Assembly: GCA_963695345.1 (NCBI GenBank)
Contig: OY968769.1
Coordinates: 1,312,001 to 1,376,000, forward strand
Source: an uncultured Methanomassiliicoccales archaeon
GTDB lineage: Archaea > Thermoplasmatota > Thermoplasmata > Methanomassiliicoccales > UBA472
Reading direction: 5' to 3'
DNA: 64,000 bases
The position numbers and the translations under genes were made by a program. Shown here piece after piece: positions 45,923 through 50,229 of the stretch. The notes under the pieces are model-generated. The model saw only the letters and a program-made list of their open reading frames with translations. It did no database searches and had not been told where the DNA came from. How positions within the stretch are numbered: the first letter of the stretch is position 1; every line of letters starts with the position of its first letter.

Positions 45923-47848
45923 CTACTCCAGCGTCACTCCGACCGACTCTGAGATCTCCAGGTCCCCCGGCGGCATGATACGGGATATCTCCTCCTCGGG
46001 CACCTCGAATATCCTTGCCAGCTGGGACGATACCTTGCTCCTCACGGACCGGGAGGGCTTGATCGCGCAGTACTTGGTGGAATGTGCCTTGACCGCCGGG
46101 AGCGGTCCGCACACGATCTTCCTCGCGCCTTCGAAGGTTATCTCCCCCACTGCCAGCTCCAGCGGCAAGTGGTGCATGTAGTTGCGCTTCCCGCGGATGA
46201 TGAAACCGCCGCGGGGAACGAACTCTCCGGCGTCGGGTGTCTTGGTGACCTGGTCAGGCTCCACCCAGTAGGCGGTCCCTTCGCTCACCCCGGCGTTCCA
46301 GGCCTTGGAATGCGCCAGCGCGAACAGGCAGAGTTCGCGCAGCTCCTCCTCGGTGGCCGCCCCTCCGTCCTTCAGGATCGTGGACGGTGCCCCGTGCACA
46401 TCCGCGTGCGCGTACCGGTCCTTCGAGGTCAGATGTTTCTTTACCACCTGGTCGTTCCCGCGGGCGTCGCGTCCGGCGAGCACCAGTTTCCCTCCCGAGG
46501 TGATGAACCATTTGTAGGCCTCGAACCAGAACCGCTTGGTCGGCTTGACGTCCTTGACCGCGGTGCGGGCGATGGCCTCTCCCTTCTTCCTGCGCGACGC
46601 GATCTTCAGCTCCGTCTCCTTGGCGGCCTGCTCCGCCCCGACCAGCTTCGACTTTGCCTCCTTGGCCTCCAGGAAAAGGATGTTGGCGTTCTCTTCCAGG
46701 CCGACGGTATAGTCAACCTTCACCTCGAACTCGCCGAGCCTGACCGTCGCGTTGTGGTTCTTCGGGTCGACCGCCACCACTCCGGGGATCCCCAGCATGG
46801 CCGATCTGATGGCCTCCCAGTCCCCCATAGAGGAGAGCTCCTTGAGCCTGGCCAGCAGGTCGGTGGCCGGTTGATAGTTGATGTACAGCGAATTGGCCCG
46901 CTCCGCCAGTCGTTCCGATTCCTGGCGCTGCCGGGTCACGTTCTGGGTCATCTGCTCCATCTGGCGAATGAGGCGCTCCAGCTCCTCGTCCTTCTCTTCC
47001 TTCTTCTCCTCCACCCTGACGCTCTTCACGAACAGGTCCAGCGCCTCGGACATGGTGGCCTTCGGTTCGGAGCGCAGCGCCGAGTTCAGGCGCAGCTCGA
47101 TCGGGGTAACGTCCACCACCAGGTCACCGTTGTGGACCAGTCTCGGGCTGGGCGCGGTCTTGATGGAAATCAGTATCTCGCCTATGGACCGGAACAGATC
47201 GTTCATCTCTTGGTCGGTGAGGGTCTTCGCCTTGCGGGACTTGTCTATGCCAGCCCGCAGACAGACCTCTTCCGCGTACTGTCCGCCGATATTGGCCGAG
47301 GTGGCCAGGGTTCGGACCACATCAGCGGTGGAACCGGCGATGGCCTTCTTGAAACCGTCTTCGTTCTCCACCTTGGGGTCGAAACGGGAAAGCGGAAATT
47401 GGTATTCTGAGCCGATTAGCACATCCCGATGCCGCCACTTCTTCTGCTCGATGCAGTTGACTATCTTACCATCGCCCACAATGAGCAGGTTCCCTTCTCC
47501 GAACAGTTCGAAGATGATCTCGAAGGCGGTCTCTCTGTTTGCCACCTTCATCACCAGGATACGGTCGAACTCACGCTGTTCCACTGACTGAACCCTGGCG
47601 TTGCCGAGGAGCTTACGTGCATGAACGGCAAAACTGGAAGGGATGTCCGGCGCGTCCGGTTTCGATTCCGGGGCGAACAGCCATTTGGTGTCCTTGAAGT
47701 AGAGCTCCCTCTTCCCCTGCTGGGTATTGATCCGGAACAGGACGTTCCTCTTGTCCCAGTTGAACACCTTGTCGACGAATCCGCCGACAAGCGACTGCAT
47801 CTCGCCCGATATCGCCAGGATATCGAATGCGTTCATCTCTCCCTTCAT
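45923..47848 (-). CDS. rqcH: Ribosome quality-control NFACT/Rqc2 homolog
   Basis: FDRIL, ELFGEGN, coiled coil, WFE.Y.WF..S...LVL.GRD...N...VKKH, HAD.HGA, G.F.IRG.RN. Confidence 0.92.
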   Translation of the reverse strand: MKGEMNAFDILAISGEMQSLVGGFVDKVFNWDKRNVLFRINTQQGKRELYFKDTKWLFAPESKPDAPDIPSSFAVHARKLLGNARVQSVEQREFDRILVMKVANRETAFEIIFELFGEGNLLIVGDGKIVNCIEQKKWRHRDVLIGSEYQFPLSRFDPKVENEDGFKKAIAGSTADVVRTLATSANIGGQYAEEVCLRAGIDKSRKAKTLTDQEMNDLFRSIGEILISIKTAPSPRLVHNGDLVVDVTPIELRLNSALRSEPKATMSEALDLFVKSVRVEEKKEEKDEELERLIRQMEQMTQNVTRQRQESERLAERANSLYINYQPATDLLARLKELSSMGDWEAIRSAMLGIPGVVAVDPKNHNATVRLGEFEVKVDYTVGLEENANILFLEAKEAKSKLVGAEQAAKETELKIASRRKKGEAIARTAVKDVKPTKRFWFEAYKWFITSGGKLVLAGRDARGNDQVVKKHLTSKDRYAHADVHGAPSTILKDGGAATEEELRELCLFALAHSKAWNAGVSEGTAYWVEPDQVTKTPDAGEFVPRGGFIIRGKRNYMHHLPLELAVGEITFEGARKIVCGPLPAVKAHSTKYCAIKPSRSVRSKVSSQLARIFEVPEEEISRIMPPGDLEISESVGVTLE

Positions 47849-47918
47849 CACCATCCCTTAGCATCTGGATGGACAAAAGGGTTTGCCATTGTGACCGTTG
47901 TTGTCGCGGAACAACTCA

Positions 47919-47932
47919 GAAAGATTTATCAA
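47919..47932 (+). promoter_or_regulatory. Putative BRE/TATA promoter of tRNA-Thr
   Basis: GAAAG-ATTTATCAA about 27 nt upstream of the tRNA, the same layout as the tRNA-Lys promoter. Confidence 0.55.
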
Positions 47933-47958
47933 TGGTAATCAGGTTGGGGAGTGACACT

Positions 47959-48030
47959 GCCACTGTGGCTTAGAGGTATAGCGATGCCTTGGTAAGGCAT
48001 AGGTCGAGGGTTCAATTCCCTCCAGTGGCT
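47959..48030 (+). tRNA. tRNA-Thr(GGT)
   Basis: GCCACTG/CAGTGGC acceptor, ATGCC-TTGGTAA-GGCAT anticodon arm, GAGGG-TTCAATT-CCCTC T arm, followed by a T-tract. Confidence 0.95.
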
Positions 48031-48122
48031 CTTTTTCTATTATTCGGTTTCACGGACCGTTCTTCCAGCATAGAAATATAGTTGACAACCTCTATTTCAG
48101 TAGGCTCTTGGGTGAATTAAGG

Positions 48123-49019
48123 ATGAACCGTCGGCTTCTCTATTCGATCCTGATATTCGCTGGAGTCCTGGCATTAGGGACCGTGGCCTTCACCTTCGTA
48201 GAGCCTTCTGTTCATGGGGATCCGTGGGTGTCTCTGTATTTCACCATAACCACCGTTTTCACAGTAGGATACGGGGACGTGGTACCGACCACCGGCGACA
48301 GCAGGATCACCGCCGTCATTGTGATGGTGCTGGGGATCGCAGCCGGGGTCCACACATTGCAGAACCTGTTCGATCTGGCGATCAGGCGCGACCTGAGGAG
48401 AGAGCTAGGCCTACCGGAAAGGAGGGTCAGGATGAAAGATCATTACATCATTTGTGGCTACGGACACGTGGGAAGGGAGGTCCTGGACCAGCTGGCAAAG
48501 AAAGGGGAAAGGTACCTGGTCATTGAAAATGACCGGAGCAAGGTGGAGACCATGGTGGACCACGGCATCCCGGTGATCGCCGGAGACGCGGAATCGGAGG
48601 AGGTGCTGCAACGGGCCAATATCTCGACCGCCAAGGGGCTTATCGCCACCATGAAGGATTCACAGAACATGATCGTGGTCCTGACGGCAAAGACGCTCAA
48701 CCCGAAGATCAATGTGGTGACGGAGGTCGAAGACCATAAGAACGAGGGGAAGTTGAGACTGGTAGGTGCGGATAGCATCATCAACTGCCATGAGATGGGG
48801 GCCAGGTTAATGGTGGGGAGAGCACGGAACGTCACCATAGACCCGGTCTGCGGGCATGAGATCAGCACACCCGACGCCAAGTTCAGTCATGTGTACCAGG
48901 ATGGAACCTTCCACTTCTGCTCGAAGGAGTGCATGGAAGCCTTCAGACTGAACCCTGACCGGTTCAAGGAGCTAAGGACCGTCCTGGATGACACATGCGG
49001 TATGGGTCCCAAATATTGA
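48123..49019 (+). CDS. 2-TM potassium channel with RCK_N (TrkA-N) domain and a C-terminal YHS/TRASH domain
   Basis: TTVFTVGYGD filter, IICGYGHVG Rossmann motif, DPVCG...Y....FHFCSKEC...F..NP.RF. SD GGGTGA precedes ATG 48123. Confidence 0.9.
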   Translation: MNRRLLYSILIFAGVLALGTVAFTFVEPSVHGDPWVSLYFTITTVFTVGYGDVVPTTGDSRITAVIVMVLGIAAGVHTLQNLFDLAIRRDLRRELGLPERRVRMKDHYIICGYGHVGREVLDQLAKKGERYLVIENDRSKVETMVDHGIPVIAGDAESEEVLQRANISTAKGLIATMKDSQNMIVVLTAKTLNPKINVVTEVEDHKNEGKLRLVGADSIINCHEMGARLMVGRARNVTIDPVCGHEISTPDAKFSHVYQDGTFHFCSKECMEAFRLNPDRFKELRTVLDDTCGMGPKY

Positions 49020-49020
49020 T

Positions 49021-50229
49021 TCACTTCATCCGGTAGTATAGGAAGCCAGACCAGATCTTGGGCCAGAAATAGGTGGACTTCTTCGGCATGACCCTTCCTC
49101 CCAGCGCCACCTGCCAGATCGCTTCGAGATTGGGGGTGCTTAGGATGACCGCCATGTCCGCCTCTCCCTTCTGGATCTTGTCACCCACAGAGATCGGATC
49201 GTGGTCATAGGCGATCTTGAAGTCCTTGCCGGCGTTCGGAACGACGACCTTGTCCAGAAGCACTTTCTCGCAGACGAAGGTGTCCACCGACCACATCATA
49301 TCCGTGGGGTCGGTTTCCCTGGGCACGAGCAGGACATACCGTTCGTTCCTGGTCCAAAGGCCCAATGCGGTCTCCTTCGAGGCGGTGAGCGCGCTTATCA
49401 TCTCCGGCAGGCGGTCGAAGATGCGTAGGTAGAAGAACTCCTCCAGTCGGTTGATCAGGTCGTCCTCGCTGATCTCCATCCCGGAGAGGAGGCGGTGCGT
49501 CGGCCTCACGATCAATCCCGGATCGTTGGTGGAGATGAGCGTGGCCATGACATACTGCTTACGTTCGTCCGTCGGATTCTCCTGGGCATATCTGACCGAG
49601 GTCTCGTAACGGTGATGCCCGTCGGCGATCAGGAGCCTTTTTGAGCTCAGCTCGGTCATCATCCTAGCGACCACGTTAGGGTCGGATATGCGTGAAAGCA
49701 CATGGGTCACGCCCTGCCTTTCCGTCCATTCCAGAACCGGGGCCGCGTTCTTGTCCATCGCCTTGACCAGATCGGCGGGGAGCTGGTCGTAGAGACAGAA
49801 TATCGATTCGCAGTGGGTTTCGACACCGCGCAGCAGGTTCAACCGGTCCTCTTTGACCTTGGAGAATGTCTCCTCATGAGGGATCACGCCGTCCCGGTCA
49901 TATCCCTCGGCCTTCAGGATGCCCATGATGCCGGTCCTGTGCACTTTCTCAAAGTTCTCGGTGAAGGTCTGCCGGTACAGGTAGAAAGATTCTTTCTCAT
50001 CCTTGACCAGCCTGCCCTGTTCGATCCACGATTCCAGCCGCTTGCCCGCTCCCTCGTAACCTCCCGAGATCCCTCCCAGTGTGATGTTGGTTACGTTCAG
50101 CGGATGGGATTGAAGCTCCGCCAGCTCTTCCTTGGAAATGACGTCGTAGGGTGGGGATACCCGGTCTGAGACCTTCTCTTGCGCGTCGATTTTCGGTATG
50201 AATCCTTGGAAGGGACGGAACTGGACCAT
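49021..50229 (-). CDS. DUF1015-family protein
   Basis: F.PF.G, SPPYDVI, YLYRQ, PHEET...K.DRL.L, IADGHHRYET, MP.KSTYF.PK..SG. Confidence 0.88.
   Translation of the reverse strand: MVQFRPFQGFIPKIDAQEKVSDRVSPPYDVISKEELAELQSHPLNVTNITLGGISGGYEGAGKRLESWIEQGRLVKDEKESFYLYRQTFTENFEKVHRTGIMGILKAEGYDRDGVIPHEETFSKVKEDRLNLLRGVETHCESIFCLYDQLPADLVKAMDKNAAPVLEWTERQGVTHVLSRISDPNVVARMMTELSSKRLLIADGHHRYETSVRYAQENPTDERKQYVMATLISTNDPGLIVRPTHRLLSGMEISEDDLINRLEEFFYLRIFDRLPEMISALTASKETALGLWTRNERYVLLVPRETDPTDMMWSVDTFVCEKVLLDKVVVPNAGKDFKIAYDHDPISVGDKIQKGEADMAVILSTPNLEAIWQVALGGRVMPKKSTYFWPKIWSGFLYYRMK

Follow-up and report, generated by a model that had tools for sequence, protein, structure and literature searches.

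What gates a potassium channel in which the outer lobe of the cytoplasmic ring appears to have been exchanged for a domain best known from metal-handling proteins? The question is raised by a gene in a 64,000-nucleotide (nt) stretch of DNA from an uncultured Methanomassiliicoccales archaeon (GTDB UBA472; GenBank assembly GCA_963695345.1, contig OY968769.1, positions 1,312,001 to 1,376,000), referred to here as the window, to which all positions refer unless another locus is named. Among the ligand gates of K+ channels, RCK rings are understood best; they are known to respond to Ca2+ and other simple ions, to nucleotides, and to c-di-AMP. The open reading frame at 48123..49019 on the plus strand (298 codons plus stop, ATG start) encodes a 298-amino-acid (aa) protein that, judged from its sequence, is a two-transmembrane (2-TM) K+ channel of the RCK-regulated type, with a YHS/TRASH domain in the place of the RCK C-lobe. 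The swap points to a transition metal as one factor in the control of the channel, though it is no proof of this.

The domain architecture is clear-cut. A Pfam search with curated cut-offs (22.5 bits for Ion_trans_2, 23.8 for TrkA_N, and 30.3 for YHS) returned three domains, each above its threshold: a 2-TM pore (Ion_trans_2, PF07885, residues 11-85, 48153..48377, 50.8 bits), an RCK N-lobe (TrkA_N, PF02254, residues 108-221, 48444..48785, 112 bits), and a C-terminal YHS/TRASH domain (PF04945, residues 239-283, 48837..48971, 39.9 bits in the protein search and 43.5 bits in a genome scan), all on the plus strand. TrkA_C (PF02080), the RCK C-lobe, was not found in the protein among Pfam families with E values of up to 1. 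The RCK N-lobe leads through the end of β6, C222, and helix αF (residues 226-234), a segment at 48786..48824 predicted to form both the dimer interface and the hinge into the YHS domain, and the protein ends in a C-terminal helix (residues 278-292 in an AlphaFold2 [AF2] model) and a tail with Cys292 (48954..49016; codon 48996-48998). A sequence-only reading of this DNA had already proposed a pore, an RCK N-lobe, and a YHS/TRASH domain replacing the C-lobe, and both the Pfam scores and conservation across the family bear it out. It had placed the motifs correctly; as read from the DNA, DPVCG begins at D240 (nt 48840), FHFCSKEC ends at C270 (nt 48932), and the tail contains a TCGM. The C terminus on which it depended does score as YHS/TRASH, 39.9 bits against a cut-off of 30.3. 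An alternative TTG start at 48108 is unlikely because GGTGA (48111-48115) lies 7 nt 5' of the ATG and because relatives begin at the same Met, their first residues being M(N/K/R)RRL.

The three-domain arrangement recurs among relatives. A whole-protein search gave 330 matches, and among the 69 closest clusters (E values of 1e-169 to 5e-58) a YHS domain is present in 68, the exception being a truncated 217-aa form (P0026), while all three domains are found in 64. Given this recurrence, and since 40 of the 201 genomes from the same order contain the gene, the architecture is not a chance assembly. The 69 clusters carry source labels of Methanomassiliicoccales or Euryarchaeota and are annotated as "NAD-binding protein," "YHS domain-containing protein," or "voltage-gated potassium channel." The next 51 matches listed share at most 40% identity with the channel; none has a YHS domain and 47 have TrkA_C. 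One relative at 40% identity (L117) has a classical C-lobe where the channel has its YHS domain. Broken down by family of the order, the gene occurs in 26 of 46, 1 of 1, 3 of 4, 1 of 1, 4 of 10, 4 of 24, and 0 of 114 genomes. In a 401-genome sample of the phylum, the four genomes whose matches run through residue 293 or beyond all belong to the same order, and the other 26 matching genomes align only up to residue 249 or less (E values of at least 5.7e-34); outside the order, nothing full-length was found in this sample. Residues 190-298 gave no match at an E value of 1e-5 or below in longer (523-2000 aa) or shorter (30-162 aa) proteins, which is weak evidence.

Some copies of the gene are broken. 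Those in G001 (G001:C6:550-1392) and G069 (G069:C17:304225-305091) contain one in-frame TAA or TGA, that in G043 (G043:C3:512771-513659) is split into two frames near residue 192-196, and that in G117 is a fragment. Either the channel gene is dispensable in some lineages or the broken copies are assembly errors.

The selectivity filter of the pore, T47-V-G-Y-G-D52, can be read directly from the DNA at 48261-48278, and T47, V48, G51, and D52 are identical in all 91 sequences that cover it; G49 is kept in 90 of 91, and position 50 is Tyr in 75 and Phe in 16 (this and the other residue counts come from a set of 95 distinct sequences, fragments included). The AF2 model places TM1 at residues 3-26, the pore helix at 34-46, and TM2 at 58-95. 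MthK is the best sequence match in the PDB (1lnq, E value of 2e-25, residues 9-231); by fold, MthK and GsuK match best, in alignments of about 225-230 columns that likewise cover residues ~9-231 only.

The ligand site of the RCK N-lobe departs from that of MthK. The three glycines of a GxGxxG motif (G112, G114, and G117; 48456-48473) and E135 at the end of β2 are invariant in 95 of 95 sequences. A GxGxxG followed by an acidic residue at the end of β2 is the dinucleotide fingerprint of KTN/TrkA-type RCK domains; at the same place the alignment shows GWSEST in MthK. Site 1 for Ca2+ in MthK consists of D184, E210, and E212, and by a hand count of the alignment the equivalent of D184 is T176, a position that is never acidic in the channel family (Thr in 67, Ala in 22, Val in 4, and Ser in 1 of 94 sequences); E201 and E203 are retained in 94 and 93 of 95. 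The label "MthK-like" given by the sequence-only reading thus stands for the pore and the RCK fold and fails for the ligand site, where the ligand D184 is lacking. We infer an N-lobe of the nucleotide-binding (KTN) type, with NAD(H) or ATP/ADP as the expected ligand, so that a metal would be at most a second input. That reading had proposed a channel gated by a transition metal or by thiol redox state, of which our analysis supports the architecture and keeps control by metal as a tentative model, and it missed both the nucleotide fingerprint and the internal start at Met104 discussed below. From its list of RCK ligands it had also omitted Na+, H+, Zn2+ on BK, and c-di-AMP.

Structure prediction suggests that the RCK domains pair. 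Two copies of residues 104-298 scored an ipSAE of 0.70, against 0.18 for the best of three controls, with at least 91% of contacts shared between runs and a partner pLDDT of at least 84; the ipSAE mark applied is reached by 20 of 30 proteins solved as one-chain pairs and by 1 of 23 solved as single chains. The predicted interface brings helix αA (115-129) against β6-αF (217-236), with further contacts from 171-176 and 197-203, and such a dimer would be the unit of a gating ring. Because this is the textbook RCK dimer, for which similar complexes have already been solved, the score may reflect likeness only. C222, conserved in 93 of 94 sequences, lies within the predicted interface; we considered it as an additional metal ligand, but packing is the simpler explanation for a residue in that position.

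The C-terminal module carries a candidate ligand motif, D240-x2-C243-x22-C266-x3-C270, followed by the tail T-C292-G-M. C243 is invariant (94 of 94) and C270 nearly so (93 of 94), while position 240 is Asp in 90 of 93 and Cys in 3, position 266 is Cys in 80, Asp in 12, and Ser in 2, and position 292 is Cys in 86 of 91. The tree shows that the 12 sequences with D266 form one diversified clade that keeps the Asp. The three with C240 (CPVCG) also form one clade, the only one without the tail Cys, and its sister has D240 and the tail Cys; the other losses of the tail Cys comprise one Cys-to-Tyr change (P0052/L107) and two proteins that end before the tail (P0067 and P0068). This pattern would fit a constant ligand count at the site, with Cys292 included in it, although each of these changes is a single evolutionary event and the covariation is for that reason only suggestive. 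The YHS part as a whole is not decaying, since its mean pairwise identity (49%) is close to that of the pore (53%).

In the AF2 model the YHS strands start three residues after αF; two helices (268-276 and 278-292) come next, and the Cys tail last. When residues 232-298 were modeled alone (pLDDT of 77), Foldseek gave no match at an E value of 0.001 or below; the best hits, eL24/L24e and the ToMO/MMO hydroxylases, are weak (E values of 0.4-1). With VIA-align the same model reached a Z score of 5.3 against 1fyz_A 410-476, in the C-terminal part of a di-iron hydroxylase alpha subunit, and about 5 against eL24, a range that the tool calls common, with weaker similarity to an FCS zinc finger (Z of 3.3) and to NosL. 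These matches to the model are weak, consistent with the YHS family, for which a treble-clef-like fold such as that of L24e is expected, and not decisive. A PDB sequence search with the YHS part returned nothing significant, the best hit having a spurious E value of 0.11 and L24e one of 0.4.

More can be drawn from the YHS-containing adenylyl cyclase of Mycobacterium phlei, whose proposed ligand set (D178, C181, C204, and C208) has the same spacing as that of the channel (PMC4626032). The paper reports that 1-10 µM Cu2+ activates the cyclase only when the YHS domain is present, that no activation occurs with Zn2+, Fe, Cr, Co, or Ni, and that the Cu2+ effect is reversed by EDTA and hence is not oxidation; it adds that L24e binds Cd2+ through four Cys and that in YHS domains the first of these is commonly Asp. 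By analogy with this enzyme, and from the Cys/Asp pattern, a role as metal sensor is plausible for the YHS domain of the channel.

Many related YHS sequences occur in proteins that traffic metals. A search of 1.84 billion proteins with the YHS domain gave 1226 matches at an E value of 0.001 or below, and the 38 that we inspected among the best 150 of these 1226 include multi-YHS proteins, heavy-metal P-type ATPases, CusB-like fusions, and an ArsP permease; the channel architecture appears in 1 of the 38, itself a member of the family. The only other YHS domain above the cut-off in the same genome is a 48-aa protein, outside the window on the minus strand (L001:1501-1644, equal to about 2.387 Mb on G000:C1), located 16 nt downstream of an ATPase of the copper-type P1B class, which has a CPC motif and scores 483.7 bits with TIGR01511 (cut-off of 397). 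This small protein aligns with the YHS domain of the channel without gaps (29% identity, pairwise E value of 1e-9), has the same D-x2-C-x22-C-x3-C motif, and is likely a small copper chaperone or regulator. The link of YHS domains to copper proteins speaks for Cu, and from sequence the candidate metal is Zn2+ or Cu. The genome has only one other Ion_trans_2 match, outside the window (L005:1474-2301, minus strand, about 0.272 Mb on G000:C1, 23.7 bits). This membrane protein of 275 aa lacks an RCK domain, and its filter-like TLGSSD is degenerate; the reading frames beside it resemble those of a DtxR-type metal regulator and a FeoB-type GTPase.

The remaining component of the ring is suggested by the linker between pore and RCK domain. 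Met104, just N-terminal of the RCK lobe, is invariant (95 of 95), and its ATG (48432-48434) is preceded, after a 6-nt spacer, by a Shine-Dalgarno-like AGGAGG (48420-48425); the 16S rRNA 3' end, ...GGATCACCTCCT, carries the anti-Shine-Dalgarno sequence. The AGGAGG encodes R100 and R101, which are AGG AGG in 25 of the 29 loci where the internal site was located by pattern (the exceptions are L094, L099, L109, and L112, and the patterns did not locate it in L115). In a codon control of 23 loci, R100 is AGG in 23 and R101 in 19, against 10 of 23, 7 of 23, and 1 of 22 at other conserved Arg positions of the channel and 117 of 371 of the remaining Arg codons in 22 channel genes, and nearby Leu, Pro, and Glu codons vary freely among loci. 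In MthK the Met just before the RCK domain is an internal start that supplies the soluble half of an octameric ring, and codon conservation at 48420..48434 leads us to infer that Met104 is a putative second start of this kind, yielding a 195-aa soluble RCK-YHS subunit. Met104 is also where three database gene calls start, which shows only that gene finders accept the site.

The sequence may instead be no start at all, with its codons retained for mRNA structure, pausing, or codon preference in an essential linker, and with a ring built from only the four channel-borne RCK-YHS units or completed by another partner. Several observations weigh on this side. No other stretch of the protein is as conserved as the linker itself (residues 96-107, 48408-48443, LGLPERRxRMKDH), whose mean pairwise identity is 85% where the domains reach 47-62%, so selection may be acting on the protein; before starts, GGAGG is only modestly enriched in this genome, preceding 5.6% of naive first ATGs and 2.1% of internal ones; two distant MthK-like relatives have a Met at the position equivalent to 104 without a Shine-Dalgarno sequence; and the loci counted are relatives, so that the counts overstate their independence. 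Constraint on the protein is nonetheless insufficient, because the conservation at R100 and R101 is synonymous: AGG is favored there beyond other conserved Arg positions while the neighboring codons drift. This suggests that the linker is under a double constraint, as protein and as internal ribosome-binding site, and we consider it unlikely, though well short of negligible, that AGGAGG-ATG is not a start.

We hypothesize that these parts form a tetrameric 2-TM K+ channel whose cytoplasmic gate is a ring of nucleotide-type (KTN) RCK N-lobes, half of them probably supplied, as in MthK, by a soluble RCK-YHS protein made from the same mRNA with its start at Met104. Directly after hinge helix αF, in the place of the peripheral C-lobe, would sit the YHS/TRASH module, most likely binding one thiophilic transition-metal ion (Zn2+ or Cu) through Asp240, Cys243, Cys266, and Cys270, and completed by Cys292 from the tail. 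As metal enters or leaves, the C-terminal helix would become ordered or be released, changing the hinge and so biasing the opening of the ring, which would also be set by the nucleotide, NAD(H) or ATP/ADP, on the Rossmann fold. In RCK rings such as that of MthK a change in hinge angle drives opening, and a metal-dependent fold would be well placed to alter this angle since the YHS module starts only three residues after αF. Of this model, assembly of the ring, the second start, the binding of nucleotide and of metal, and any effect on gating are all proposed from sequence and prediction. We adopt gating by nucleotide and YHS-bound metal tentatively, as a leading model that falls somewhat short of probable. 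Its most specific form, a first K+ channel with a dedicated transition-metal sensor, in which metal on the Asp/Cys3 site recruits Cys292 as a latch and thereby makes the C-terminal helix ordered where it meets the RCK hinge, so that metal and nucleotide state jointly gate an octameric ring built from channel-borne subunits and subunits started internally, is more doubtful still.

A structural zinc site fits the same data, and we rank it almost as likely as gating by metal and nucleotide. On this account the YHS module holds Zn2+ permanently, or folds without metal, as a compact cap replacing the C-lobe, and gating is left to the nucleotide or another N-lobe ligand alone. The closest solved folds are structural ones (eL24/L24e, the metal-free segment of 1fyz_A, and the FCS zinc finger, at the Z scores given above), one clade has returned to the classical Cys4 pattern, the nucleotide fingerprint is invariant, and in the 26 loci parsed no metal-homeostasis gene is a conserved neighbor. 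Further points count against metal gating. A YHS/TRASH fold may serve structure alone or have no metal at all, and the cyclase paper describes the YHS domain of toluene-4-monooxygenase as having no ligand in the crystal (PMC4626032); the confident part of the predicted dimer interface stops at residue 236, without contact to the YHS domain; and both the D240/C292 covariation and the C266-to-Asp change go back to single events. What a static cap accounts for poorly is that the form with one Asp and three Cys is a sensor in the only YHS fusion enzyme tested (PMC4626032), that an extra tail Cys covarying with position 240 and a C-terminal helix exceed the needs of a static knuckle, and that the nearest YHS sequences, among the 38 inspected, lie in metal-trafficking proteins. 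A site specific for Cu(I) was also considered and is disfavored by the conserved Asp240 and by the clade with Asp at 266.

The module could also be a thiol or zinc-thiolate redox switch, in which oxidation of the Cys cluster by oxidants (O2 acting on a strict anaerobe) or electrophiles expels the metal and alters gating, a K+ response to oxidative or electrophile stress akin to that of Kef. The four to five Cys conserved within 55 residues, together with C222 at the dimer interface, would suit such a switch, as would the patchy, lifestyle-like distribution over families (up to 26 of 46 genomes, and 0 of 114 in the seventh). Nothing speaks specifically in its favor, however; the clade with Asp at 266 keeps the site with one thiol fewer, and the YHS cyclase is activated by binding and not by oxidation (PMC4626032), so that we regard this as improbable.

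Set against known systems, the channel shares with MthK the 2-TM pore with TVGYGD followed by an RCK domain and the Met just before that domain, but it lacks the TrkA_C C-lobe and the Ca2+ ligand D184 and has instead GxGxxG with its acidic partner, the YHS domain, and the Cys tail. With GsuK, TrkA, and KtrA it shares a Rossmann N-lobe bearing the dinucleotide fingerprint, and the top GsuK fold matches include NAD- and ADP-bound entries; these proteins, however, carry C-lobes, with two RCK domains per chain in GsuK, and no YHS domain occurs among the matches. The RCK domain of E. coli Kch (1id1, matched at an E value of 1e-14) also has an N-lobe that dimerizes without a classical C-lobe, but belongs to a 6-TM channel with no metal-binding domain. 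Copper-handling TRASH/YHS proteins (N- and C-terminal domains of Cu-ATPases, archaeal CopR-type regulators, and small YHS proteins next to copA) belong to the same Pfam family as the module of the channel but are transporters, chaperones, and DNA-binding regulators, and none is known to gate an ion channel. The M. phlei cyclase (PMC4626032) resembles the channel in carrying its YHS domain at the C terminus, a short linker away from a dimeric signaling domain, with the spacing Asp-x2-Cys-x22-Cys-x3-Cys. It differs in its output domain, a cyclase, and apparently, no alignment having been made, in lacking the extra tail Cys.

We found no literature linking a YHS/TRASH domain with a K+ channel or an RCK domain, in a search whose coverage mostly excluded subscription journals, and a search for Methanomassiliicoccales and potassium channels found only unrelated work. 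The statement of the sequence-only reading that it knew of no characterized example of this architecture accordingly agrees with the literature searched. The parts are all known; as far as we searched, their combination, its conservation, the tail Cys, and the conserved internal start have not been described.

The surroundings of the gene in the window are stable. Upstream and divergent lies an NFACT/Rqc2-like gene (45923-47854, minus strand), and downstream and convergent a DUF1015 gene (49021-50229, minus strand), whose stop codon abuts that of the channel. This order is kept in most of the parsed loci, across genera whose proteins share about 50% identity; it points to vertical descent and is not informative on function. 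A NosD/beta-helix surface-type protein, which we take to be unrelated, is encoded upstream in three loci. Between the NFACT gene and the channel, 91 nt 5' of the channel ATG, sits a tRNA-Thr(GGT) (47959..48031, plus strand; ARAGORN, Rfam tRNA at 71.4 bits), the only Rfam match in the window. Near-identical copies of this tRNA and its close flanks (47914-48036) appear in wetland and peat metatranscriptome contigs. Six RNA runs contained only 5-7% of the sampled words, and in the four runs compared the near-identical cover extends only over 47914-48036; cover of the channel gene consists of short pieces, 85-90% alike and from other organisms, and is uninformative on transcription.

If the proposed control by metal is true, transition metals, or the redox state of a metal-thiolate site, would join the inputs of RCK rings, and the peripheral lobe of the RCK domain would be an exchangeable sensor slot. 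At 298 aa, and with a 195-aa partner from the same gene that is likely soluble, the protein is a convenient subject for flux assays, metal analysis, and cryo-electron microscopy. The YHS domain, poorly understood and with one cyclase as its only functional read-out to date, would gain a second. For the environmental methylotrophic methanogens that carry this channel, its regulation would couple the metal or redox status of the cytoplasm to membrane potential and K+ content.

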